From NCBI GenBank assembly GCA_018242445.1, contig JAFEBW010000050.1:35044-99043 (forward strand): a stretch of 64,000 nucleotides of DNA, read 5' to 3'. Position 1 is the first letter of the stretch. Each line of letters opens with the position of its first letter. Below, one piece after another: positions 3,345 through 26,675 of the stretch. Origin of the DNA: Pseudomonadota bacterium (lineage in GTDB: Bacteria; Pseudomonadota; Gammaproteobacteria; Xanthomonadales; Xanthomonadaceae). The notes under the pieces were generated by a model. It did no database searches and was not told where the DNA came from. It worked only from the letters and a program-made list of their open reading frames with translations. Both the position numbers and the translations under genes were made by a program.

Positions 3345-3350
3345 GGGGCC

Positions 3351-3470
3351 GGGAATCGGGAATGGGGAATGGGGAATCGGAAAGACAGGCAGTGGGAATC
3401 GGCGGGATCCGGCGGTGGGAGTACTCGCTTCGGCTTCTACGATTCCCGATTCCCGATTCCCGATTCCCGG
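3351..3470. repeat. inverted arrays of tandem heptamers, (GGGAATC/G)x4 facing (GATTCCC)x4 with a roughly 60-nt loop, at the trpG/trpD junction
   Basis: Read directly. GGGAATC GGGAATG GGGAATG GGGAATC lies at 3351-3378 and GATTCCC x4 at 3441-3468. An extra GGGAATC lies in the loop at 3394-3400. Confidence 0.9.
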
Positions 3471-4045
3471 CCTTCAAGAAAATTCCCCAACAGCGCATGC
3501 CCGTGCTGGGTCAGGATCGACTCGGGATGGAACTGCACGCCCTCGATGCGCAGCTCGCGGTGGCGCAGGCCCATGATGGCCTCGATCTCGCCGTCGCCAT
3601 CCTGCGTCCACGCGGTGACCTCGAGGCAATCGGGCAGCGACTCGCGCTCGACCACCAGCGAGTGATAGCGCGTGGCCTCGAAGGGCGCTGGCAGGCCGGC
3701 GAACACGCCCTTGCCATCGTGGTGCACCGGCGAGGTCTTGCCGTGCATGATGTTCCCGGCACGCACCACCCTGCCGCCGAAGGCCTGCCCCAGCGACTGG
3801 TGGCCGAGGCACACGCCGAGGATCGGGATGCGCCCACCGAGTTGCGTGAGCACATCCAGCGACACCCCGGCATCGTCGGGTGTGCCCGGCCCGGGCGAGA
3901 TCACGATGTGCGATGGCGCGAGCGCCTCGATGCCGGCCACGTCCAGCGCATCGTTGCGCACCACCCGCACCTCCTGCCCCAGCTCGCCGAAGTACTGCAC
4001 GAGGTTGTAGGTGAAGGAGTCGTAGTTGTCGATCATCAGCAGCAT
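3437..4045 (-). CDS. trpG: anthranilate synthase component II (glutamine amidotransferase)
   Basis: [19 protein letters not shown]...GVCLGHQ...HGK...QFHPES is the class-I GATase triad region. The last 10 codons ([10 protein letters not shown]) are encoded by the heptamer array. Confidence 0.95.
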
Positions 4046-4327: not shown

Positions 4328-4537
4328 ATGACCGCAAGCGACGGAGACATCCTCACGCTCGATGAGGTGGCCGCCTATTTGAAGGCCGGCAAGCGCACGG
4401 TGTACCGGTTCGCGCAAAACGGCGAACTCCCCGCCTTCAAGCTCGGCGGCACCTGGCGGTTCCGTCGCTCCGAGCTCGAGCGCTGGATCGACGCCAACAG
4501 CAACCAGCACAAATCGACAGGCAAGGGACGCCGCTGA
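4328..4537 (+). CDS. small helix-turn-helix DNA-binding protein (excisionase/MerR-like HTH)
   Basis: [46 protein letters not shown] is the typical excisionase-family HTH. The stop overlaps the helicase ATG (TGATG). Confidence 0.8.
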
Positions 4538-7500
4538 TGGAACTCCTCGACAACATCAGCCACCTGTTCGGCGACGATCTCAAGCAGGCGCTCACGTCCG
4601 GGGCCAAGCTCAAGGTCGCCGCCTCCTGCTTCTCGATGTACGCCTACGAGGCGTTGAAAGCCGAGCTGGAGCAGATCGACGAACTGCAGTTCATCTTCAC
4701 CGCACCCACGTTCGTTGCCGACGAAGTCACCGACCAGGTGAAACGCGAACGGCGCGAATTCCATATCCCCAAGCTGGATCGCGAGCGCAGCCTCTACGGC
4801 AGCGAGTTCGAGATACAACTGCGCAACAAACTCACCCAGCGCGCCATCGCCCGCGAGTGCGCCGACTGGCTGCGGCGCAAGGCGAAGTTCCGCAGCAACC
4901 GCAGCAAGGCCCCCATGCAGCAGTTTGCCGGCGTCCAGGACGCTGCAACGGCAACGGCATACATGCCACTGCACGGCTTCACCGCGGTTGATCTTGGCTA
5001 CCAGCAAGGCAACGCCGTCTCCAACTTCGTCAACAAGATCGGCGAGCCCACCTACGCCACGCAGTACCTGAACCTGTTCGAGCAGATCTGGAACGACGCG
5101 GAGAAGCTTGAAGACGTCACGGCGCAAATCTGCCAGCACATCGCTTCCGTGTACCAGGAGAACGCACCGGAGAGCGTCTACTTCCTGATGCTCTACAACA
5201 TCTTCAACGAGTTCTTGGGCGACCTCGACGAAGACGTGCTGCCCAACGACCGCACGGGCTACCAGGACACGCTGGTCTGGAACAAGCTCTTCAACTACCA
5301 GCGTGATGCCGCCACCGGCATCATCAACAAGCTGGAGACCTACAGCGGCTGCATCCTCGCCGACAGCGTGGGCCTGGGAAAAACCTTCACGGCGCTGGCC
5401 GTCATCAAGTATTACGAGCTGCGCAACAAGTCGGTGCTTGTGCTCTGCCCCAAGAAGCTGGCGGACAACTGGCTCAACTACAACCGTAACCTGAAGACCA
5501 ACCTGTTCGCCAAGGATCGTTTCAGCTACGACGTGCTTTGCCACACCGATCTGAGCCGCACCAGCGGCGAATCCTTCGGCACCCCACTCAACCGCATCAA
5601 CTGGGGCAACTACGACCTGGTGGTGATCGACGAGTCGCACAACTTCCGAAACAACGATGCCGTGAAGGAGCGCGAGACCCGCTACCAGAAGTTGATGCGC
5701 AAGGTGATTCGCGAGGGCGTCAAGACCAAGGTGCTGATGCTCTCGGCTACGCCGGTCAACAACCGCTTCAACGACCTGCGTAACCAGCTTGCATTGGCCT
5801 ACGAAGGCGACTCGGAGAACCTCAACAAGAAGCTTCGCACCAGCAAGTCGGTCGAAGAGGTGTTCCGCAACGCGCAGCGGGCTTTCAACACCTGGTCGCA
5901 GCTGCCACCGGAGCAGCGCACGCCGCGCGCCATCCTCGACGCGCTGGACTTCGATTTCTTCGAGCTCTTGGACAGCGTCACCATCGCGCGCTCGCGCAAG
6001 CACATCCAGACGTTCTACGACACCCGCGACATCGGCCCTTTCCCGGAGCGCCGCAAGCCACTGTCGTTCCACTGCCCGCTGACCACGCGGGTGGATGTCA
6101 TGAGCTTCAACGACATTTTCGAGCAGCTCGCCAAGCTCAACCTCGCGATCTACGCGCCGCTCAGCTACATCCTTCCCAGCCGCATCAAGAAGTACGAGGA
6201 CATGTACGACACCCAGGTATCGGGTGGCGGCGGCGCGTTGCGCCAGATAGACCGCGAACAAAGCCTGAAGAAGCTGCTCACCGTCAACCTGCTCAAACGC
6301 CTGGAAAGCTCGGTCGCCGCCTTCCGGCTGACCTTGAAGATGTTGCAAGGCAACCACCAGCACACACTCGGCAAGGTCGAAGCATTCGGAACAAGCGGCG
6401 GCAAAGGCAGCATCACCGACCACACGGCGGCACTCGACAGCCTGGACGCGGAAGACGACGACTGGCTGGACGCCGACGGCAGCGACTTCAACGTAGGCGG
6501 CAAGATCAAGATCGACCTGGCCGACATGGATTTGCCGCGCTGGCAGTTCGACCTTGAGCGCGACCGCGATGTGATCGCCACGCTCTTCGCGGAGATGGAG
6601 AAGATCACGCCAGCGGATGACACCAAGCTCCAGCATCTGAAAGCACTTGTGCAGGGAAAGATCGCCCAGCCGATCAACCCCGGCAACAAGAAGGTGTTGA
6701 TCTTCACCGCCTTCGCCGACACCGCCGACTACCTCTACGCCAACCTGGCACCCGAGCTATGGGCCAACCATGGCCTGCACAGTGCCGAGGTGACTGGCAG
6801 CACGCGACCCAAGTCCACCCTTGCCACGAAGTACGACTTCCAGGAACTGCTGACGTTGTTCTCGCCACGGGCCAAGGAAAAAGCCGTGGTATTGCCGCAA
6901 GAGCCGGCAGAAATCGACCTGCTCATCGGCACGGACTGCATCTCCGAAGGCCAGAACCTGCAGGACTGCGACTACCTGGTCAACTACGACATCCACTGGA
7001 ACCCGGTGCGCATCATCCAGCGCTTCGGCCGCATCGACCGCATCGGCTCGCCAAACGCCAGCATCCAATTGGTGAACTACTGGCCCGACATCTCGCTGGA
7101 CGAATACATCAACCTCAAGGAACGCGTCGAAAGCCGCATGACCATCGTCGACGTCACCGCCACCGGCGACGACAACGTGCTCTCGGCCCAGGCCAACGAC
7201 GTCGCCTATCGCAAGGAACAACTGCGGCGCCTGCAGGAAGAAGTGATCGAACTCGAAGACCTCAAGGCCGGCGTGTCGATCACCGACCTTGGCCTCAACG
7301 ACTTCCGCATGGATTTGCTGAACTACGTGAAGGCACATGGCGAGCTGAAGAGTGCCCCGAACGGCCTGCATGCCGTGGTACCTGCCAACACCCAGCTTGG
7401 CTTGCCGCCCGGCGTGCTCTTCACCCTGCGCAATCGCAATGCGGGTATCAACCCGGAAGCCAACCAACCCCACCACAACCGCCTGCACCCGTACTACCTG

Positions 7501-7830
7501 ATCTATATCGGGCGCGACGGTAACGTCGTCCACGACCAGACCGAAGTGAAGCGTTTGCTCGACCTGGCTCGCACTGCCTGCAAGGGGAAGAGCGAGCCTT
7601 GCCTCCCGCTGTGCGAGCAGTTCAACCGCGAGACGTCAGACGGCCGCAACATGCAGGCCTACTCGGATCTGCTGGGCAAGGCCATCCGCTCGATGATCGA
7701 CGTCAAGGAAGAGCGCGACATCGACAGCCTGTTCTCGGGCGGCAAGACCACGGCGCTGACCCAGACCATCGCCGGGCTGGACGACTTCGAGCTGATTGCC
7801 TTCCTCGTAATAGTGAGTGGTGAAAAGTGA
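4537..7830 (+). CDS. SNF2-family helicase with an N-terminal extension of about 270 aa (PLD-like architecture suspected, no HxK motif seen)
   Basis: Helicase motifs are ADSVGLGKT (I), [10 protein letters not shown] (II), MLSATPVNN (III) and [39 protein letters not shown] (V/VI). The stop TGA at 7828-7830 lies inside the heptamer arm. Confidence 0.9.
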
Positions 7831-8241
7831 AGAGTGAGATGGTGAGCGACATCAGGGAGCGGACGTTTGGTTTTGCCACGCGGGTGGTGAGGCTGTGCCA
7901 AAAGCTGGATGCCGCACCGGGAGTATCGCGGACGGTGGCAAACCAGTTGTTGCGTTCGGGCGCCTCCATCGGAGCCAACGTGGAAGAGGCGCATGGCAGT
8001 CAGAGCAAGGCCGATTTCACCGCAAAAATGTACATCGCCTGCAAGGAGTCCCGCGAAACGCACTACTGGCTGCGCCTGCTGGTCGCCACAGACATCGTCC
8101 CAGAAGCCAAGCTCGCCCCGTTACTCGACGAGTCCAATCAGCTCATCGCCATCCTGACCGCGATCGTGAAGACCGCCCGAAATGGTCGCGCCCCTCATGC
8201 CTGACCATTTCACTTCTCACCCTTCACTCTTCACTTTTCCC
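7809..8241 (+). mobile_element. cassette made of a purine-rich heptamer arm, a four-helix-bundle gene and a pyrimidine-rich heptamer arm, inserted at the helicase/DUF4391 junction
   Basis: The left arm is AATAGTGAGTGGTGAAAAGTGAAGAGTGAGATGGTGAG (7809-7846). The right arm is CCATTTCACTTCTCACCCTTCACTCTTCACTTTTCCC (8205-8241) and is its approximate reverse complement. The mobile nature is inferred. Confidence 0.5.
7839..8204 (+). CDS. four-helix-bundle protein (23S rRNA intervening-sequence protein family)
   Basis: ANQLLRSGASIGANVEEAHGSQSKADFTAKMYIACKESRETHYWLRLL matches the family core (xQLxRSxxSIxANIxEGxxxxSxxDFxxxLxIAxxSxxEtxyWL). The ATG at 7839 is preferred to the GTG at 7827. Confidence 0.85.
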   Translation: MVSDIRERTFGFATRVVRLCQKLDAAPGVSRTVANQLLRSGASIGANVEEAHGSQSKADFTAKMYIACKESRETHYWLRLLVATDIVPEAKLAPLLDESNQLIAILTAIVKTARNGRAPHA

Positions 8242-8880
8242 AAAAGCTCCGCTTTTGGGAAAGTTCTGCCCAAGGCCAAGCTTTACGAGCACGGCAGTGT
8301 CGGAACGCGCCTCAAAGGCCTCTTCACCGAGCAGGTCGAACAGATCGTCTGGCAGTACAAGCTGGCGCCGGAGACGATCAACCTGCCAGCATCGCCCGGC
8401 GTGCCGGAGATCCAGGTCTTCAGCGTGCGACTCCGGGCACCCGAGTTGCATCATGACGTGCTTCGCGGCATGGACAGCGCTATCGCGTTCCCGATCCTCT
8501 TCGAACTGAACTTCGAGGATCGCATCCAGGTCGTCGCTGCCTACAAGCGCCCCAGCGAGGCCGACGCTTCCCGCTGGGTACGCTCCGACTACTTCGCCTC
8601 GGAGTGGCTGCCCACAAGCAGCCCACGCAAGGCCATGCCCACCGCATTGAGCTTGGGCAATCTGTACCAGCAGGTGTTGTCGGCGCTGATCGCCCTACCT
8701 GCCCGGCCAAGCGAGTCTCTGCCCGCATTGGTCGAACGCGCCAGCCAGGTGCAGGCGCTCCGCCATGAGCTGCACAAGGTCGTCTCAAGGCTTGAGAAGG
8801 AAAAGCAGTTCAATCGCAGGGTAGAGATCAATGCGTCGGTGCGAGAGTTGAAGCACAACCTGAAATTGCTGGAGGGATAG
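8197..8880 (+). CDS. DUF4391 domain protein
   Basis: The N-terminus is [19 protein letters not shown]. The length of about 228 aa and the position next to an SNF2 helicase and a methyltransferase are typical of DUF4391. The start is uncertain (8182 or 8197), and both candidates lie inside the cassette. Confidence 0.75.
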
Positions 8881-8882
8881 CC

Positions 8883-10292
8883 ATGCATGAAATCATCTGC
8901 CCGCACTGCCAGAAGGCGTTCAAGGTCGACGAGGCCAGCTACGTGAGCATCCTGAAGCAGGTTCGCGACAAGGAGTTCGACAAGCAGCTGCATGAGCGGT
9001 TGGAACTCGCCGAGCGAGACAAGCTCAATGCGGTTGAGCTTGCCCAAGCCAAGCTTGCTGGTGAGCTGCAGAAGGAGGCTTTGGCCAAGGATGCCGAGAT
9101 CAAGGAACTGAAGGCCAGGCTGGACGCCGGTGACGCCTCGCGCAAGCTGGCCGTCACCGAGGCGTTGAGCCCGGTCGAGAAGGAGCGCAACCAGCTCGCC
9201 AACGAACTGGCGCAAGCCAAGCGTGACCTGGAGTCTGCGGCCAAGCTGGCCGAAGCAACGCGAGCAAACGCCGTTCAGACAGCCGCCGCCGCGAAAGACG
9301 CCGAAATTCAGGCGCTGCAGGCCAAGCTCGACGCTAGTGAAGTTGCCCAACAACTTGCGGTCAACAGGGCGGTCAGCGTCGTCGAGAATGAGCGCAACGC
9401 GCTGCAGAGCGGCCTGCAGCGTGCCGAGCTTGAAAAGGACCTGGCCGAGAAGTCCCTGAAGGAAAAGTACGAAACCCAGCTCAAGGATCGTGAGGAGACC
9501 ATTGAGCGCCTCAAGGACATGAAAGCCAAGCTGTCGACCAAGATGATCGGCGAGAGCCTTGAGCAGCACTGCGAGACCGAGTTCAACCGCATCCGCGCCA
9601 CCGCGTTCCCACACGCCTACTTCGAGAAGGACAACGACGCGCGCAGCGGCAGCAAGGGCGACTTCATCTTCCGCGACCAAGCCGAAGACGGCACCGAGAT
9701 CGTCTCCATCATGTTCGAGATGAAGAACGAGAACGACGAGACCGCCAGCAAGAAGAAGAACGAAGACTTCCTGAAAGAGCTCGACAAGGATCGCGCGGAA
9801 AAAGGCTGCGAGTACGCCGTGCTGGTTTCCCTGCTGGAGCCGGAGAGCGAGCTTTACAACACCGGCATCGTCGACGTGTTCCACCGCTACCCGAAGATGT
9901 ACGTCGTGCGGCCGCAGTTCTTCATCCCCATCATCACGCTGCTGCGCAATGCGGCCACCAAAGCCTTGGCCTACAGGCAGGAACTCGCGCTGGTTCGGGC
10001 ACAGAATCTCGACATCACGCGATTCGAGAAGCAGCTGGACGAGTTCAAGGGGGCGTTCGGCAGGAACTGGCGGCTTGCCTCCGACGGCTTCGAGGAGGCC
10101 GTCAAGCGGATCGACGAAGCCATCAAGGATCTGGAGAGGACCAAGGACGCCCTCCACAAATCTGCGAACAATCTGCGGCTTGCGAACGACAAGGCTGAAG
10201 ATCTGACGATCAAGAAATTGACCCGGGGCAACCCGACGATGGCGGCGAAGTTCGCCGAACTGAAAGACCACGATGCTTCCGGCGAAGCATGA
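8883..10292 (+). CDS. DUF2130 protein (N-terminal CxxC, long coiled coil, C-terminal PD-(D/E)xK-like motif)
   Basis: It has the [18 protein letters not shown]-terminus, about 200 aa of Ala/Glu/Lys/Gln-rich heptad-like sequence, and then GDFIF...x15...FEMK. Confidence 0.75.
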
Positions 10293-10309
10293 ACCCAAGG
10301 AAGCACACG

Positions 10310-12250
10310 ATGGACAAGTTGAAGATGCACTCGCCTGACCTCAGCCAGGACAACCTCGCGCGGCTACGCGAGATGTTTCCGGGCTGCGTGACGGAAGCAA
10401 GAGTGAAGGGTGAAGAGGGAAAAGTGAAATATGCGGTGGACTTCGACCTGCTGCGGCAGGAGCTGTCCGGGTTGCTGGTGGAGGGGCCGCAGGAGCGCTA
10501 CCAGCTCGACTGGCCGGGCAAGCGCGAAGCGCTGCTGACGGCCAATGCGCCGATTGCCAAGACCTTGCGCCCGGTGCGCGACGAAAGCGTGGACTTCGAC
10601 ACCACCAAGAACCTGTTCATCGAAGGCGACAACCTGGAGGCGCTCAAGCTGCTGCAGGAGACGTATCTGGGCAAGGTGAAGCTGATCTATATCGACCCGC
10701 CGTATAACACCGGCCGAGACTTCGTTTACGACGATGACTTTGCCGAGGATGCAGAGTCGTTCCTTGTGAAGTCGCTCCAGCAAAGCACGACGGGCGAAAA
10801 GCTTGTGGCAAACCCGGAGTCGAATGGCAGGTTTCACTCCGACTGGCTTTCCATGATGTATGCACGAACGCGTCTAGCAAAAAGTCTCCTGACCGACGAT
10901 GGAATTTTTCTCGCTTCGATTGACGATGGCGAGGTATCTAACCTACGGAAGGTCTGCGATGAGATTTTCGGTGAAGAGCAATTTGCTGCTCAGATCATCT
11001 GGAAAAAGCGCAATACACCGCCAAACGACAAGATCATCGGTGCCCAGCACGACTACATCTTGCTTTATGTAAAGAATGGCCTCTCTGGAATTAACCTCCG
11101 GCCAAGATCGCAGGATCAGATAGACCGTTACAAGAATCCAGACAATCACCCCAAAGGGCCATGGGTCGCCGGCGACCTCACCGGCAACGTGAAGGGCGGA
11201 CGTTACTCAGCCGCGCTGCATTACCCAATTAAAAACCCGAATACAGGGGAGCAATTCTATCCAGCCAATAACGGGAACTGGCGATTTAATAAAGAGAAAA
11301 TTGAGCAACTTATCTCCGAAGACGCAATTTATTTCGGAAAGGATGGCAAACAAGCCCCGAAACTTAAGCGCTTTCTCTCCGACGTGAAGGATGGCACTAC
11401 ATGGACATCCCTCTGGGATTTCGCACCATTCAACACATCCGGATCGAACGAGATGGGCGAAATTTTCGGCAACTCAACTCTCTTTGAGAACCCTAAGCCC
11501 GTTGGCCTACTCGAACATGTGATTGAGCTTGGTGCATCACCGGGTTCAATCGTAGTCGACTTCTTTGCTGGCACATCTACAACTGCACACGCCGTAATGA
11601 GGAAAAACGCTGAGGACAATGGCAATCGCCGCTTCATCATGGTGCAGTTGCCGGAGGCTTGCGCCAAGGATTCGGAGGCATTCAAGGCGGGCTACGCGAC
11701 AATCGCCGAGGTAAGTAAGGACCGCATCCGCCGCGCCGGTAAGAAGATCAGCGATGGCGGCTCACAGGTTGACATCGGCTTCCGCGTCCTCAAGATCGAC
11801 ACCTCCAACATGGCCGATGTGTTCTACACCCCCGACGCCGTTAGCCAAGGTGACCTGCTCAATGCAGTGGACAACATCAAGCCCGACCGCAGCGCCGAAG
11901 ACCTGCTGTTCCAGGTGATGCTGGACTGGGGCGTGGATCTTTCGCTCCCTGTCGGGCGCGAAAGAATAGTGAAGAGTGAAAATGGAATGGTGAAGTTCGA
12001 GCCGATAGCGCCAGAAGATTTCACTTCTCACTTTTCACCATTCACTCTTCTAACGGTTGACGGCAACGCCCTAATCGCCTGTTTCGACAACGCCGGCAAC
12101 ATCGACGATGCGTTAGCCAAAGAGCTGGCCAAGCGCAAGCCCCTGCGCGCGGTGTTCCGCGATGCCGGCTTCAAGGACAGCACGGTGAAGATCAACATCG
12201 AACAGATCTTCAAGCTGCTCTCGCCGGGCACCGAAGTGAAGTGCCTGTGA
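10310..12250 (+). CDS. site-specific DNA methyltransferase, Type III Mod-like (beta-class N6A/N4C order)
   Basis: MDKLKMHSPDLSQDNLARL is a Mod-type N-terminus. Motif IV IYIDPPYNTG precedes motif I VVDFFAGTSTTAHAV. The SD AAGGAAG lies 6-7 nt upstream of the ATG at 10310. Confidence 0.9.
   Translation: MDKLKMHSPDLSQDNLARLREMFPGCVTEARVKGEEGKVKYAVDFDLLRQELSGLLVEGPQERYQLDWPGKREALLTANAPIAKTLRPVRDESVDFDTTKNLFIEGDNLEALKLLQETYLGKVKLIYIDPPYNTGRDFVYDDDFAEDAESFLVKSLQQSTTGEKLVANPESNGRFHSDWLSMMYARTRLAKSLLTDDGIFLASIDDGEVSNLRKVCDEIFGEEQFAAQIIWKKRNTPPNDKIIGAQHDYILLYVKNGLSGINLRPRSQDQIDRYKNPDNHPKGPWVAGDLTGNVKGGRYSAALHYPIKNPNTGEQFYPANNGNWRFNKEKIEQLISEDAIYFGKDGKQAPKLKRFLSDVKDGTTWTSLWDFAPFNTSGSNEMGEIFGNSTLFENPKPVGLLEHVIELGASPGSIVVDFFAGTSTTAHAVMRKNAEDNGNRRFIMVQLPEACAKDSEAFKAGYATIAEVSKDRIRRAGKKISDGGSQVDIGFRVLKIDTSNMADVFYTPDAVSQGDLLNAVDNIKPDRSAEDLLFQVMLDWGVDLSLPVGRERIVKSENGMVKFEPIAPEDFTSHFSPFTLLTVDGNALIACFDNAGNIDDALAKELAKRKPLRAVFRDAGFKDSTVKINIEQIFKLLSPGTEVKCL
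11965..12052 (+). repeat. cargo-less heptamer-array hairpin inserted in frame in mod
   Basis: AATAGTGAAGAGTGAAAATGGAATGGTGAAG ... TTTCACTTCTCACTTTTCACCATTCACTCTTC. The arms are reverse-complementary and are translated as IVKSENGMVKFEPIAPEDFTSHFSPFTL. Confidence 0.8.
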
Positions 12251-12259
12251 GGGAGTGCC

Positions 12260-13924
12260 ATGGAGAAGACTGAGCTGACGCAGCTGCTGGAAAGCCTGAT
12301 CGCCACCTGGGAGAACGAGGTGGTGGAGTTCAAGCAGGCCGGCAGCGACTACAGCACCGACGACATCGGCAAGTATTTTTCCGCGCTGGCCAACGAGGCC
12401 AACTTGCGCGGGGCCGATGCCGGCTGGCTGGTGTTCGGCGTGAACAACAAGACGCGCCGCATGGTGGGCACGGACTACCGCCCGCAGGCTGCGCGGCTGC
12501 ACGCGCTCAAGATGCAGATCACCGAGAACGCCGAGCCGCGCATCAGCTTTCGCGATATCCACGAGTTGAGCCATGCCGATGGCCGCGTGCTGCTGTTCGA
12601 GATACCGGCAGCCCCACTCGGCATACCCATTGCCTGGAAGGGCCACTACTACGCCCGCGCTGGCGAAAGCCTGATCTCGCTGTCGCTGGACAAGCTGGAT
12701 GGCATCCGCCGCCAGACTCTGGCGCAGGACTGGACGGCGCAAGTCGTGCCTGGTGCGACCCTGGCCGACCTGGATGAAACCGCGCTGCGCAGGGCGCGTG
12801 AATCGTTTGCCAGCAAGTACGCGAACCGGGTTGCGCTCAGCGAAGTGCTGGGCTGGCCCATCAACACCTTCCTCGACCGGGCGCGGTTGACGCAGGACGG
12901 GCAGCTCACCCGCGCAACGCAGTTGCTGCTGGGCAAGCGCGAGTCGGCGTATCGCCTGTCGCCCCACCCCGCGCAACTGACATGGAGCCTGGTGGGCCAG
13001 GAGCGCGCCTACGAGCATTTCGGCCCGCCCTTCCTGCTGAGCACCACTCGCCTGTACCAGCGCATCCGCAACATCCAGTTGCGCATCCTGCCGCAGGACG
13101 AACTGGTGCCCGTGGAAGTGGCCAAGTACGACCAGAAGATCGTGCTGGAAGCCTTGCACAACTGCATCGCTCACCAGGACTACACGCGCCACGGCCGCGT
13201 GGTGGTGACGGAGCAACCCGACCGGCTGGTGTTCGAGAACGAGGGCGGCTTTTACGAGGGCAGCCCCGACGACTACATCACCGGCACCAAGCTTCCCCGG
13301 CGCTACCGCAACCCATTCCTCGCCCAGGCGATGGCCGAGCTGAACATGATCGACACCATGGGCTACGGCATCCACGACATGTACGTGCGCCAGGCGCGGC
13401 GCTACTTCCCGATGCCGGACTACGACCTTGGCGAAGCCGGGGCCGTGAAGATGACGATCTACGGCGGTGTGGTCGATCCGGCTTATAGCCGGTTGCTGAT
13501 CCAGCGCACCGATCTGCCGCTGGCGGACGTGCTGGCGCTGGATCGCGTGCAGAAGAAGCTGTCGATTCCAGACGAGGCCGCTGCGCGCCTACGCAAGGGC
13601 AGACTGATCGAGGGCCGCAAGCCGAACTACTTCGTGTCTGCCGAGGTGGCGACGGCCACGGACAGCAAGGTCGACTACATCCGCACGCGCCCTCAGGACG
13701 ACGAGTTCTACGCCAAGCTGCTCGTCGACTACTTGGAAAAGTTTGGCGAGGCCACGCGCACCGAGATCAACAAGCTGCTGCTGGACAAGCTCAGCGACGC
13801 GCTGGACGAGCAGCAAAAGTACAACAAGGTCAGCAATCTCCTCACCAATCTGCGCCGCCGTGGAGTTATCCGCAACGCTGGCGTCGACAGCGCGCCGCGC
13901 TGGGTACTTGCAGAGACGAATTAG
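12260..13924 (+). CDS. AlbA_2 (Schlafen-like DNA-binding) plus ATPase-like/wHTH protein, often annotated as ATP-binding protein or putative transcriptional regulator
   Basis: The N-terminus ENEVVEFKQAG...IGKYFSALANEANLRGADAGWLVFGV is typical of AlbA_2. The central NCIAHQDY...GGFYEG resembles the HATPase_c_4 region. The SD GGGAG lies upstream. Confidence 0.75.
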   Translation: MEKTELTQLLESLIATWENEVVEFKQAGSDYSTDDIGKYFSALANEANLRGADAGWLVFGVNNKTRRMVGTDYRPQAARLHALKMQITENAEPRISFRDIHELSHADGRVLLFEIPAAPLGIPIAWKGHYYARAGESLISLSLDKLDGIRRQTLAQDWTAQVVPGATLADLDETALRRARESFASKYANRVALSEVLGWPINTFLDRARLTQDGQLTRATQLLLGKRESAYRLSPHPAQLTWSLVGQERAYEHFGPPFLLSTTRLYQRIRNIQLRILPQDELVPVEVAKYDQKIVLEALHNCIAHQDYTRHGRVVVTEQPDRLVFENEGGFYEGSPDDYITGTKLPRRYRNPFLAQAMAELNMIDTMGYGIHDMYVRQARRYFPMPDYDLGEAGAVKMTIYGGVVDPAYSRLLIQRTDLPLADVLALDRVQKKLSIPDEAAARLRKGRLIEGRKPNYFVSAEVATATDSKVDYIRTRPQDDEFYAKLLVDYLEKFGEATRTEINKLLLDKLSDALDEQQKYNKVSNLLTNLRRRGVIRNAGVDSAPRWVLAETN

Positions 13925-13976
13925 TGTCGCCGCAGAGAACGTTTCAAGGAAAGCCATAACTATCAATTGCTTGCAT

Positions 13977-14003
13977 CTCTCTGCACGCCACCGATGCAGA
14001 GAG
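13977..14003 (+). other. 9-bp stem hairpin (CTCTCTGCA / TGCAGAGAG, 9-nt loop) in the only sizeable intergenic gap of the island
   Basis: Read directly. No T-run follows, so it is not a canonical terminator. Confidence 0.4.
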
Positions 14004-14031
14004 CCTGCAGAAAGAAGGCGCGTCAAAAGCC

Positions 14032-17000
14032 ATAAAGCTCAAGTTCAAGATCCAGCGTTACCAGACCGACGCCGTACAGTCCGTGGTGGATTGCTTCGAG
14101 GGCCAGCCACCAGCCAACGCCCGGGCCGTCAGCTACCGCATCGACCCCGGCAAGCTGGCCAAGGGACAGACCATCGGCAGCACGCTGAGTGCCGGCGACG
14201 GCTTCCGCAATGCCGACCTGCTGCTGACCGAGCAGGCCTTGCTGGCCAACGTGCAGAAGATGCAGCGCCACCAGAACCTGCCGATCTCCACCGCGCTGGT
14301 GAAGACCAAGATGTCGCCGGTCAATCTCGACATCGAGATGGAAACCGGCACCGGGAAGACTTATTGCTACATCAAGACCATGTTTGAGCTGAACCAGCGC
14401 TACGGCTGGAGCAAGTTCATCGTGGTGGTGCCCTCTATCGCCATCCGCGAGGGCGTGGCCAAGTCGCTGAAGATCACCGCCGACCACTTCCTGGAAACCT
14501 ACGGCAAGAAGGCCCGGTGCTTCATCTACGACTCCAAGCAGTTGCACCAGTTGGAGAGCTTCGCCTCCGACGCCGGCATCAACGTGATGGTCATCAACGT
14601 GCAGGCGTTCAACGCCGCCGGCAAGGACAACCGGCGCATCTACGAAGAGCTGGACGACTTCCAGTCGCGCAAGCCCATCGACGTCATCAGCGCCAACCGC
14701 CCCATCCTGATTCTGGACGAGCCGCAGAAGATGGAAGGCGACAAGACGCTCAAGTCGCTGGAGGCGTTCAAGGCCTTGATGGTGTTGCGCTACTCGGCCA
14801 CGCACAAGACCCGGCACAACCAGATTCACCGCCTGGACGCGCTCGACGCCTACAACCAGAAGCTGGTGAAGAAGATCGCCGTGCGCGGCATCACCATGAA
14901 GGGGCTGGCAGGCACCAACGCCTATCTCTACCTGCAGTCCATCGAGATTTCGACCAGAAAGCCGCCGGAAGCACGGCTGGAGTTCGAGCAGAAGCTGGCT
15001 GGCGGCAAGATCAAGCGCATCGTGCGCAAGCTCGGCAAGGGCGACAACCTGTTCACCCTCTCCAACGAATTGGACGAGTACCGCACCGGCTTCACGGTGG
15101 CGGACATCAATGCCAACACCGACACCTTGAGCTTCACCAACGGCGTGCAGCTCACCGTGGGCGATGCCACGGGCAACGTGAACGAATCAGCGCTGCGACG
15201 CATCCAGATTCGCGAAGCGATCAAGGCGCACTTCGACAAGGAAGAAGCCCTGTTCGCACAAGGCGTGAAGGTGCTCAGCTTGTTCTTCATCGACGAGGTG
15301 GCGAAGTACCGCGACTACTCAGCCGCCGACGAGAAAGGCGACTACGCCCGCATGTTCGAGGAGGAGTACGACGAAATAGTGAAGAGCGAATTGGGAAGAT
15401 TGAATGAGGAAAGTTCAATTCTCAATCTTCACCATTCACTCTTATATGCCGACTACCTGAAAGGCATCGCGGCGGAGAAAACCCACAGCGGCTACTTCTC
15501 CATCGACAAGAAGAGCAAGCGCCTGACCGACCCCACGGTGGCGAAACGCGGGGAGAACGCCGGGCTGTCGGACGATACCGATGCCTACGACCTGATCCTC
15601 AAGGACAAGGAGCGCCTGCTGTCGCTCGACGAACCAGTGCGCTTCATCTTTTCGCACTCGGCACTGCGCGAAGGCTGGGACAACCCCAACGTGTTCGTCA
15701 TTTGCGCGCTCAAGCACAGCGACAACACCGTCTCGCGGCGTCAGGAAGTGGGGCGCGGCTTGCGCCTTTGCGTGAACCAGCAAGGCGACCGCATGGACAA
15801 CCCGGTCACCGTGCATGACATCAACGTGCTGACCGTGGTGGCCAGCGAAAGCTACAAGGACTTCGTGGCCGGGTTGCAGGACGACATCAGCAAGTCGCTT
15901 GCCGAACGCCCACGCAAGGCCAACGAGGATTACTTCAAAGGCAAAGTGCTCAAGACCGAGCAAGGCGACGTGGACGTCACGCCAGCGATGGCGAAGCAGA
16001 TCTACAAATACCTGCTCAAAAACGACTACACCGACGATAACGACGGTATCGCCGATACCTATCACCAGGCACGCAAGGATGGTGCGCTGGCGGAGCTTCC
16101 TGCCGACTTGAAGCCCTACGCCGATCAGGTGGTCTTCCTCATCGACAGCGTCTTCAGCCAGGCGCTGCTCCCGGACATCGCCGACGGACGCAAGCCGAAG
16201 ACGAACCCGCTCAACGCCAACTTCGACAAGCAGGAATTCAAGGCGTTGTGGAACCGCATCAATCGCAAGGCGGCCTACAGCGTGCACTTCGACAGCGACG
16301 AACTGGTCGCGAAGGCCGCGGCCAAGCTCAACGACAAGGATGAAGGCTTGCGGGTCACCCCGCTGCAGTACGTCATCCAGGCCGGCACGCAGACAAAACA
16401 GGCCACCTACGACGACATCGCCGCCGGCAAGGGCTTCCGGATCACCGAGAGCGAAGTGGAGAACCACCGCGCCTCGATCCACTCGCTGGTGCGCTACGAC
16501 CTGATCGGCAAGCTGGCCGAGGGCACCCAGCTCACCCGACGCACCATCGCCGACATCCTGAAGGGCATGAACGTGGCAGTGTTCGCCCAGTTCAAGACCA
16601 ACCCGGAAAGCTTCATCGCCGAAGCCACTCGGCTCATCAACGAGCAGAAGGCCACCGTGATCGTCGAGCACCTGGCCTATGACCCGGTGGAAGAAACCTA
16701 CGACCTGGACATCTTCACCGCCAGCCAAAGCCGACAGGACTTCACGAACGCCGGCGGAAAGCTTCAGCACCACATCTACGACTACGTGGTCACCGACTCC
16801 AAGGTGGAGCGCCAGTTCGTAACCAATCTGGACACCAGCACCGACGTGGTGGTCTACGCCAAGCTACCCAGGGGCTTCCTCATCCCGACACCGGTAGGCG
16901 ACTACAACCCGGACTGGGCCATCAGCTTCAAGGAAGGCAAGGTCAAGCACATCTACTTCGTCGCCGAGACGAAAGGCTCGATGTCCAGCATGGAGCTACG

Positions 17001-17130
17001 CGAGATCGAGAAGACCAAGATCAAGTGCGCCCGCAAGTTCTTCGACGAAATGAATCACCGATACATACCCGAGAACGTCAAGTACGCGGTGGTGGATAGC
17101 TTCAGCAAGCTGATGGAGATCGTGAAGTAA
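14032..17130 (+). CDS. Type III restriction enzyme Res-like helicase-nuclease (start codon problematic)
   Basis: It has Walker [10 protein letters not shown], motif [10 protein letters not shown], and the C-terminal nuclease motif YNPDWAISF...FVAETKG (PD...ExK). The conserved N-terminus [25 protein letters not shown] is in frame from 14032, but that codon is ATA. The first standard start is the GTG at 14083. Confidence 0.85.
15375..15444 (+). repeat. cargo-less heptamer-array hairpin inserted in frame in res
   Basis: AATAGTGAAGAGCGAATTGGGAAGATTGAATGAGG ... TTCAATTCTCAATCTTCACCATTCACTCTTA, translated as [23 protein letters not shown]. Confidence 0.75.
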
Positions 17131-25503: not shown

Positions 25504-26553
25504 ATGAAACGCCCCATCCTCGGCATCGAAACCTCCTGCGATGAAACCGGGGTGGCGGTCTACGACCTCGCCACCGGTCTGCGCGCGCACGCCCTGTACA
25601 GCCAGATCGCCCTGCACGCGCAGTACGGCGGGGTGGTGCCGGAGCTGGCCAGCCGCGACCACGTGCGCAAGCTGTTGCCGCTGGTCCGGCAGACCCTCGC
25701 CGAGGCGGGCATCGGCGTGCGCGATCTGGGCGGCGTGGCCTACACCGCCGGCCCCGGGCTGGTCGGCGCGCTGCTGGTCGGCGCCGGCGTCGGCCGTGCG
25801 CTGGCATGGGCGCTGGAGGTGCCGGCGATCGGCGTCCATCACATGGAAGGCCACCTGCTGGCACCGCTGCTGGAAGATGCCGATCTCAAGCCGCCCTTCG
25901 TGGCGCTGCTGGTCTCCGGCGGGCACACGCAACTGATCGCCGTGCGCGCGATCGGCGACTACGAATTGCTCGGCGAAACCCTCGACGACGCCGCCGGCGA
26001 GGCCTTCGACAAGACCGCGAAACTGATGGGCCTGCCCTACCCCGGCGGCCCGCATCTGGCCGCGCTCGCCGAACGCGGCACGCCGGGCCGGTTCACGTTC
26101 TCGCGGCCGATGACCGATCGCCCCGGGCTGGACTTCAGCTTCTCCGGCTTGAAGACGCAGGTGCTGCTGGCATGGCAGAAATCCGACCAGTCCGATGTGA
26201 CACGCGCCGACATCGCCCGTGGTTTCGAGGACGCCATCGTGGATACGCTGGCGAGCAAATGCGAGCGCGCACTGGAGGCAGCCGGCATGGACAGTCTGAT
26301 CGTCGCCGGCGGCGTCGGCGCCAACCTGCGCCTGCGCGCGAAATTGCAGTCGCTGACGCAGCGGCGTGGCGGCCGCGTCAGCTTCCCGCGCCCGGCCTTC
26401 TGCACCGACAATGGCGCGATGATCGCCCACGCCGGCGCGCTGCGGCTGGCGGCGGGGCTGTACGATGGCGCGAGCGTGGACGTGCGTCCGCGCTGGGACA
26501 TGGCTGTTTTGCCCCCTTTGGGCGGCAAAACGGGAATAAGGAATAGGAAATAG
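25504..26553 (+). CDS. tsaD: tRNA N6-adenosine threonylcarbamoyltransferase
   Basis: [21 protein letters not shown]...HHMEGHLL...GGVGAN. It is divergent from rpsU. The last codons (TGIRNRK) are encoded by a heptamer array. Confidence 0.95.
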
Positions 26554-26675
26554 GGAGTGGGAAAGCGAAAAGCCTCGCGCTCCCGGATGGATTCTCACTC
26601 CCGGTATCCCTTGGTCAGATGCCTGCACGCACGCGCTTGTACCATTCCCCATTCCCCATTCCCCATTCCCGCCCC
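26532..26675. repeat. inverted arrays of tandem heptamers (GGGAATA AGGAATA GGAAATA GGGAGTG ... CCATTCC x4) at the tsaD/folB junction
   Basis: Read directly. The left arm is 26532-26566 and the right arm 26642-26675. An inner GGGAGTG/CACTCCC pair lies at 26553-26559 and 26596-26602. Confidence 0.9.

Follow-up and report, generated by a model that had tools for sequence, protein, structure and literature searches.

A conserved SNF2-DUF4391-Mod-Res core with variable cargo in a Type III-like island beside trpG of a Xanthomonadaceae genome

A 64,000-nucleotide stretch of a Xanthomonadaceae genome (contig JAFEBW010000050.1 of assembly GCA_018242445.1, positions 35,044 to 99,043; hereafter the window) carries, from 4328 to 17130, an island of eight co-directional open reading frames (ORFs) on the + strand. 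Two of them encode Mod and Res, a Type III-like restriction-modification (R-M) pair, and the other six encode an HTH_17 protein, an SNF2 helicase, a four-helix-bundle protein, DUF4391, DUF2130, and a protein with AlbA_2 and HATPase_c_4 domains. An earlier sequence-only reading, made without database searches, had taken the island for a multi-component restriction-like machine that matched no named defence system. The locus therefore raised the question of which of the eight genes belong together, and whether those that do amount to a known system. We found that SNF2, DUF4391, Mod, and Res stood together in the same order in every complete related locus, and that the remaining genes were exchanged from one locus to the next. 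We consider it probable that the island is one operon composed of a conserved four-gene core, cargo genes in a leader position and in two slots, and a four-helix-bundle gene that is the passenger of a repeat element.

Related loci were collected by a pattern scan derived from 14 close DUF4391 sequences, using one genome per species. The scan found 561 species with a DUF4391 relative, a lower bound given its limitation to the pattern, and 80 loci were fetched. The eight window proteins served as queries in tblastn and ORF-level blastp to determine the architecture of each locus, and only loci with enough flanking DNA were counted. In all 59 of the non-redundant complete loci, which came from different species, SNF2, DUF4391, Mod, and Res occurred in this order and on one strand, with DUF4391 immediately downstream of SNF2 in every case and the SNF2 stop overlapping the DUF4391 start by 4 nucleotides (nt) in most. 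Seventeen of the 59 loci were bare four-gene operons with nothing between the core genes. The hosts included Gamma-, Beta-, and Alphaproteobacteria, Chlorobiaceae, Anaerolineae, Planctomycetota, and Myxococcota, and identity to the window proteins across related loci was 71-94% for SNF2 and 64-85% for Res. The sequence-only reading had suspected that the helicase/DUF4391/Mod/Res linkage is conserved, and this was borne out in the 59 loci and also in E. coli, Shewanella, Bacillus, Listeria, and Enterococcus. Its wider expectation, that the non-Mod/Res genes co-occur with Mod and Res beyond this genome, held for SNF2 and DUF4391 and failed for the rest.

Of 5426 complete E. coli genomes, 87 (1.6%) carried the same module, with a WYL-type regulator as leader in the copy of E. 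coli clone D i14. The module was also on 45 plasmids; plasmid hosts include Acinetobacter, Enterococcus, and Listeria. It is thus widespread, and the native copies in E. coli make it experimentally accessible. In the Listeria and Enterococcus plasmids, a 185-amino-acid (aa) 'hypothetical protein' turned out to be a divergent DUF4391 (hhalign 99%, E 7e-18). One copy was on a Shewanella conjugative plasmid, and a bare four-gene copy adjoined repA on E. coli IncFIB plasmids of ~112 kb (pLAO18 and similar; L089, 3154-12215). The pLAO18-type plasmids are non-mobilizable and may be phage-plasmids; a LAGLIDADG homing endonuclease and a 5'-3' exonuclease are also among their genes.

The four core genes were then compared for common descent and for retention of their catalytic motifs. 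Pairwise distances were correlated between SNF2 and DUF4391 (r=0.74), SNF2 and Res (r=0.54), and DUF4391 and Res (r=0.56), all with Mantel p<=0.001. Mod distances correlated weakly with those of the other three genes (0.17-0.27), a decoupling that is expected from exchange of the specificity domain. The presumed target-recognition region of the window Mod (variable; ~10743-11771) contains the G+C minimum of the island (0.525). Its DNA (10743-11771) had no similarity to the corresponding stretch (13178-14314) of L068, the closest locus, which is collinear elsewhere, indicating a recent swap of specificity as far as the sequences can tell. Motifs I, II, III, and VI of SNF2, Walker A, DEPQ, III, VI, and PD..ExK of Res, and DPPY of Mod were invariant or almost invariant across all 58 homologues, the Firmicute ones included. 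Since these motifs are kept throughout, both ATPases, the nuclease, and the methylase are under selection. The core thus appears, by its architecture and sequence relationships, to be a distinct and horizontally mobile subfamily of Type III-like R-M; within the searchable literature it is unnamed, and the Dnd, YprA/ARMADA, and lactococcal Abi papers describe other things.

The individual core proteins differed in how much could be said about them. Mod and Res were confirmed as the bona fide Type III-like pair that the sequence-only reading had seen: Mod matched the PADLOC model MTase_III (PDLC03634) over its full length at 4.5e-222, and Res matched REase_III at E=0 and EcoP15I Res (PDB 4zcf_C) at 9.1e-76. 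Against the NCBIfam Type III endonuclease equivalog NF012027 / PRK15483, Res scored 393.8 bits and did not reach the cut-off of 564, and the EcoP1/P15-type Res genes of plasmids, ~28% identical to the window Res, formed a separate tier. By these scores, Res is related to the EcoP/StyLTI equivalog group but falls outside it. For the SNF2 helicase, PADLOC gave C3a139 'HKD+Snf2' as the best match (6.6e-119, residues 180-1091), along with partial PADLOC/NCBIfam matches to the DrmD, BrxH/BrxHII, DpdE, and HmaA models. Its N-terminal (1-245) and C-terminal regions are without a characterised domain, and the AlphaFold2 model of the N-terminal 245 residues was unusable (predicted local distance difference test, pLDDT, 51). 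That N-terminus could be a degenerate phospholipase D (PLD)/HKD domain, an unproven assignment drawn from the 'HKD+Snf2' match and an alignment without a conserved histidine.

The DUF4391 family is large: clustering at 90% identity divides it into >5500 clusters, and at 50% identity it has 1487 representatives. Modelled from a diverse alignment, DUF4391 gave a pLDDT of 96.4, with an alpha/beta domain followed by a hairpin of two long C-terminal helices. Foldseek searches of this model against PDB and BFVD found nothing below E=0.04, and the DUF4391 profile matched no PDB sequence. No characterisation of the family was found in the searchable literature, where its mentions were an apparent slip for DUF7941 and an enrichment table. 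A protein of 729 aa (P0247) has an N-terminal SNF2 fragment (SNF2-rel_dom 264-419) fused to a complete DUF4391 (525-720), with no Helicase_C. The fusion may lend weak extra support to a functional link between SNF2 and DUF4391, and it could also be a deletion fusion or an assembly artefact.

The genes outside the core occupied three positions. Slot 1, the junction of DUF4391 and Mod, was occupied in 31 of the 59 loci by unrelated genes: a ~900-aa UvrD-like helicase (11 loci), an OLD nuclease with DUF2130 (3), SIR2 with HerA (3), AAA_13/PDC-S06 ATPases (3), and further an HEC-07 protein, Bro-N or ORF6N proteins, small unassigned ORFs, or, as in the window, DUF2130 alone. Slot 2, the junction of Mod and Res, was empty in 38 loci and occupied in 21, where it held AlbA_2/HATPase_c_4 (8), a DUF1016-YhcG/PDC-S02 nuclease (7), a PLDc_2 protein (4), SoFic, or Bro-N. 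The leader was an HTH_17 gene in roughly a third of the homologous operons, and its position was taken elsewhere by WYL or WYL-WCX, a ribbon-helix-helix (RHH)-like protein of 69 aa, HTH_73, or a Fic protein. To judge from its domain, the HTH_17 protein is probably a regulator of the operon, and a replaceable one. In the window, L068, and two Rhodanobacter genomes, all closely related, the island occupies the same site beside trpG. These loci differed in slot-1 cargo (HEC-07 in one Rhodanobacter) and in the specificity region of Mod; the slot-1 differences at a shared site mean that cargo turns over in place.

It is established that defence genes can be discovered among the genes that lie within multi-gene defence systems (bioRxiv 10.1101/2024.01.29.577857; Hma hotspot, PMC11232893), and the HEC and PDC families came to light in just this way, from positions inside Hma, BREX, DISARM, and Type I R-M operons (bioRxiv 10.1101/2024.01.29.577857). 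The pattern required by such 'guilt by embedding' was seen here: genes in the same orientation between core genes, contents that varied, and known defence systems in the slots of other loci. Several of the cargo genes (SIR2-HerA, OLD, SoFic, HEC-07, PDC-S02, and PDC-S06 occur among them) are either defence genes with experimental support or candidates for such a role. The operon family extends this approach to Type III-like systems, and nominates DUF2130, alone or with the OLD nuclease, and AlbA_2/HATPase_c_4 as defence candidates.

DUF2130 was examined further. The protein has an N-terminal coiled coil and a predicted C-terminal PD-(D/E)xK-type nuclease domain, and DUF2130 is listed in the PD-(D/E)XK superfamily (PMC3424549). 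In Pseudacidovorax, a 77%-identical homologue stands alone among efflux and regulatory genes with no such operon. The OLD+DUF2130 cassette, an OLD protein of 626 aa (AAA_15 and an OLD-like TOPRIM) and a 538-aa DUF2130 protein separated by 2 nt, was found in slot 1 in Aeromonas veronii (L096 and L097, 7118-10617) and in L019, L024, and L055, and by itself among housekeeping genes in Luteolibacter (L099, 7118-10617). Its OLD partner is presumably different from the OLD proteins of Gabija, PARIS, and retrons. These contexts indicate that DUF2130 is an independent module and not a part of the core.

The features of the island are listed in Table 1. The ORF list, Pfam, and a check of the junctions agreed with the sequence-only reading that eight tightly packed genes lie on the + strand, with the HTH stop and the SNF2 ATG overlapping in TGATG (4535-4539), 2 nt between DUF4391 and DUF2130, and 9 nt between mod and the AlbA_2 gene. 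The gap before the mod ATG was 17 nt, one fewer than it had counted, and mod has an alternative ATGA overlap start at 10289. The DUF4391 ORF opens at 8182, and its likeliest true start is the one given in the table, which yields the 227 aa of an identical database protein (P0001). Also confirmed in the scanned DNA were the position beside trpG, the lower G+C (0.53-0.63 within the island, 0.65-0.71 in the flanks), and the lack of a tRNA across the whole window and of an integrase or transposase by Pfam in the island genes and ten longer ORFs within ~5 kb on either side. The left flank consists of trpC, trpD, and trpG, and the right flank of a GumN/TraB-family gene and an alcohol dehydrogenase gene. 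A scan for promoters and terminators returned no promoter-like site and terminator-like sites not above expectation, a result that is uninformative for a high-G+C organism.

Table 1. Features of the island and of its surroundings in the window.
Feature	Position	Strand	Description
HTH_17 leader gene	4328..4537	+	69 aa, excisionase/MAD1-like DNA-binding; Pfam HTH_17 2.5e-19
SNF2 helicase, core gene 1	4537..7830	+	1097 aa; Pfam SNF2-rel_dom and Helicase_C
Palindromic element with heptamer arrays, carrying the four-helix-bundle gene	7809..8241		SNF2-stop/DUF4391-start junction
Four-helix-bundle (23S_rRNA_IVP / Avd-like) gene	7827..8204	+	125 aa; Pfam 1.1e-19, TIGR02436 4e-25
DUF4391, core gene 2	8197..8880	+	227 aa; Pfam DUF4391 9.3e-57
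DUF2130, slot-1 cargo	8883..10292	+	469 aa; Pfam DUF2130 8.3e-90
Mod, core gene 3	10310..12250	+	N6_N4_Mtase 4.6e-34; beta-class, DPPY then FxGxG
Mini palindrome without ORF, in mod	11965..12052		in frame; hairpin -30.5 kcal/mol
AlbA_2 (Schlafen-like) and HATPase_c_4, slot-2 cargo	12260..13924	+	554 aa; SLFN_AlbA_2 2.7e-17, HATPase_c_4 7.1e-11
Res, core gene 4	14032..17130	+	ResIII and RE_endonuc 1.3e-34; superfamily 2 (SF2) ATPase and C-terminal PD..ExK
Second mini palindrome without ORF, in res	15375..15446		in frame; hairpin -23.6 kcal/mol
GGGAATN element	3347..3472		trpG/trpD junction; -84.8 kcal/mol; encodes last TrpG residues and stop
GGGAATN element	26530..26670		tsaD/folB junction

The four-helix-bundle gene sits within an element bounded by inverted heptamer arrays, (GTGAAGA)n and (TCTTCAC)n. 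This element provides a new C-terminus and stop for SNF2 and a new start for DUF4391, and the empty sites of other loci keep the ATGA overlap. Among 87 related loci (1.43 Mb), (GTGAAGA)n-type arrays were confined to loci with the four-helix-bundle gene, and the length of the array was polymorphic. The gene has arrived on this palindromic heptamer-repeat element, which we take to resemble Rickettsia palindromic elements or rRNA intervening sequences. A possible solo arm of the (GTGAAGA)n element was seen at 10399-10428. The host genome has an analogous hairpin family with GGGAATN heptamer arrays at gene junctions; at the trpG/trpD junction, where the window has one of these elements, Rhodanobacter has a plain 4-nt overlap.

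Two mini copies of the heptamer palindrome lie in frame within core genes, a feature that the sequence-only reading had overlooked together with the non-ATG start of res. The copy in mod adds ~29 aa; it was absent from 10 homologues, and similar insertions were present at the same site in L004 and L010. The copy in res replaces or inserts residues and was found only in this window. The 107-nt gap that had been placed before res was right in position, 14032 being the start used by every homologue. The codon at 14032-14034 is ATA, not ATG, and all 23 homologues inspected have ATG there and begin with ATG AAG CTC AAG TTC AAG. The first canonical in-frame start is a GTG at 14083, which would drop 17 conserved residues. 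The ATA may reflect attenuated expression of Res or an assembly error. Together with the element insertions in mod and res, it suggests that restriction is possibly weakened in this copy. It could be, although we regard this as rather unlikely, that the copy is a decaying, restriction-deficient remnant that mainly methylates. The start codon, the residues altered in Res, and the residues added to Mod argue in this direction, as does the occurrence of truncated ORFs in at least one other locus: in L019 (Nitrosomonas sp. HPC101) the SNF2 ORF is 882 aa and the Res ORF 583 aa, in an operon with OLD+DUF2130 and DUF1016 cargo that otherwise looks complete and, from these truncations, looks like a decaying copy. 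However, every ORF of the window is otherwise intact over ~12.8 kb, with all catalytic motifs present: I, II, III, and VI in SNF2 and, as previously read, DPPY and FxGxG in Mod and Walker A, DEPQ, and PD..ExK in Res. Moreover, the insertion site in Mod is common to two other lineages, suggesting a tolerant loop; ATA, CTG, or GTG starts could still yield some Res; and a single-base error could have arisen, the source being a metagenome-assembled genome.

How might the four core proteins work together? Mod would methylate one strand of a short asymmetric site and provide DNA recognition for a Mod-Res complex, and Res would use ATP to communicate between unmethylated sites and cut with its PD..ExK domain, as EcoP15I does. 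SNF2 and DUF4391, which are translationally coupled, probably form a subcomplex in which DUF4391 would be a partner or adaptor of SNF2. In cooperation with Mod-Res, it would provide a further motor that translocates DNA, and its task might be to bring Mod-Res onto incoming DNA or to shift it there, or else to remove protein obstacles and anti-restriction factors. The leader regulator is replaceable, and the two slots collect independent defence-type genes. We infer that the four proteins may associate physically, that SNF2-DUF4391 could have the role just described, and that the cargo may be active in defence. A more ambitious version can be offered as a tentative proposal: an ATP-dependent, four-component, two-motor R-M class distinct from Types I-IV, DISARM, and BREX, with SNF2 and DUF4391 as obligate subunits, DUF4391 as a new-fold adaptor, the slots as a landing pad, and DUF2130 and AlbA_2/HATPase_c_4 as new single-gene defence systems.

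Several observations weigh against a four-gene unit with independent cargo. The core genes could be inherited together because they share an operon and not because their products form a complex, DUF4391 offers no recognisable fold or motif from which a function could be read, and this copy may be restriction-null. The close homologues of the AlbA_2 protein were found only on replicons with this operon (all four close plasmid homologues were on plasmids that carry it, and in slot 2 wherever the context was examined), so that the gene is optional but its independence is not established. Moreover, a Lactococcus plasmid has Mod-Res only, between insertion sequence (IS) elements in an apparent IS truncation, and a Clostridium plasmid has Mod-Res with no helicase annotated upstream; such copies mean that Mod-Res may function alone. 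Finally, it is precisely at the junction of DUF4391 and Mod that insertions are most frequent, which also fits two separable modules.

Two separable modules are indeed the main rival to a four-gene unit. A self-sufficient Type III Mod-Res and a separate SNF2-DUF4391 defence module would then merely share an operon, as the hotspot that parts DUF4391 from Mod, the Lactococcus plasmid, and probably the Clostridium plasmid would suggest. Mod and Res are all that a classical Type III enzyme requires (EcoP15I structure, PMC4490356), and SNF2 helicases act alone in other systems, such as HmaA (PMC11232893). We nevertheless consider two independent systems unlikely. Every complete locus examined that has DUF4391 or SNF2 also had Mod-Res, in the 59 loci and in five further genera; the gene order never varied; SNF2 and DUF4391 distances tracked those of Res; and the Lactococcus case is IS-flanked and looks like a truncation.

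A more distant alternative is that the core is a DISARM- or BREX-like, methylation-guided block without classical Type III cleavage, with SNF2 as the equivalent of DrmD or BrxH. The partial matches of SNF2 to the DrmD, BrxHII, and DpdE models would be in keeping with it, and on the Bacillus cereus plasmid pMRY14-0057_1 (L092, 1-11919) the core lies directly downstream, on the same strand, of DrmA and a DUF1998 (DrmB-like) gene. The latter may be a hybrid of DISARM and the SNF2-DUF4391-Mod-Res module, one case among 95 loci, and tblastn with a DrmB sequence matched this locus only. Identity of the helicase with DrmD was rejected, as the equivalog NF038317 scored 145.7 bits against a cut-off of 610 and covered residues 572-854 only. 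Among the Pfam, NCBIfam, and PADLOC matches listed, those of PADLOC being the best 25 of 46 for the helicase and the best 25 of 32 for Mod, there was no DrmA, DrmB (DUF1998), or DrmC gene in the island, so that DISARM was rejected, and no PglZ or BrxC as a significant family in the eight island proteins, so that BREX membership was rejected as well. The only DrmA match in the island was a weaker, secondary one of the SNF2 helicase (1.8e-19). With the Res nuclease motif invariant in 58 of 58 homologues, this alternative is very improbable.

That all eight genes are one obligate restriction-like machine, as first proposed, is hardly tenable: the tight packing, common direction, and overlapping or near-overlapping junctions would fit it, as would the recurrence of AlbA_2 in slot 2 in several lineages, but 17 of the 59 homologous operons consist of the core genes alone, DUF2130 is in slot 1 of 5/59 loci and occurs away from the operon, AlbA_2 is in a minority (8/59), the four-helix-bundle gene is in a few (3/59 by a count that missed one), the HTH gene gives way to WYL, RHH-like, HTH_73, or Fic leaders, and the slots hold unrelated genes elsewhere, autonomous defence systems among them. 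None of the four, DUF2130, AlbA_2, the HTH gene, and the four-helix-bundle gene, is thus a fixed part of a single machine.

The claim of the sequence-only reading that no named system matches the whole gene set stood up to PADLOC and NCBIfam, which recognise only the Type III Mod and Res; DUF4391, DUF2130, and the four-helix-bundle protein are not covered by any PADLOC model. Defence-annotation models thus reduce the locus to Type III R-M, and the helicase and DUF4391, as strictly conserved as the enzyme, get no model. MADS (mad1-mad8) was rejected, as only the HTH protein resembles MAD1 (NCBIfam 77.9 bits, cut-off 80; PADLOC mad1 1.3e-08) and no other mad model was among the matches listed. 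Hma, which consists of HmaA (SNF2 and a NOV_C nuclease), HmaB (a DUF1156 methylase), and HmaC (a DUF499 ATPase) (PMC11232893), was rejected too: HmaA gave a partial match (2.4e-22), and the HmaB and HmaC models were unmatched among the matches listed.

Each of the nearest known systems shares some features with the island and differs in others. The C3a139 'HKD+Snf2' cluster is the best PADLOC match of the helicase, but ~160 N-terminal model positions, where the HKD domain is expected, were uncovered, the HKD-like histidine is unconserved, and there is no CRISPR context; C3a139 is a cluster from the neighbours of Type III CRISPR loci and not a named system (PMC6546367). CglI and NgoAVII-type enzymes are a precedent for a separately encoded SF2 motor subunit that supplies translocation for cleavage (PMC5861437); their H subunit, however, is DEAD-Z1 and not SNF2, their nuclease is an R subunit of PLD/B3 type, and DUF4391 is absent from them, as are a Type III Mod and Res. 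DISARM class 1 (DrmD, DrmMI, DrmA, DrmB, and DrmC) is similarly a mobile defence operon that encodes an SNF2-family helicase and an adenine methyltransferase, whereas the methylase of the island is a Type III Mod and is joined by a Type III Res nuclease. Hma is likewise an operon of helicase and methylase whose intergenic junctions are insertion hotspots for defence genes (PMC11232893). Three families from the embedding approach, HEC-07, PDC-S02, and PDC-S06, turned up in slots of the present operon family, but the hosts of embedded genes described there are Hma, BREX, DISARM, and Type I R-M and not a Type III-like system (bioRxiv 10.1101/2024.01.29.577857).

The closest likeness is to Type III R-M itself (EcoP1I / EcoP15I and StyLTI), with which the island shares the order of DPPY and then FxGxG in Mod and, in Res, an SF2 ATPase and a C-terminal PD..ExK, and whose PADLOC models match the island Mod and Res end to end. 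In contrast to a two-gene system of mod and res with no other conserved partner, the island family always has SNF2 and DUF4391 before Mod (59/59 loci), and cargo often parts Mod from Res. If SNF2 and DUF4391 are required, the operon would be an unrecognised, four-component form of Type III restriction with a chromatin-remodeller-type motor.

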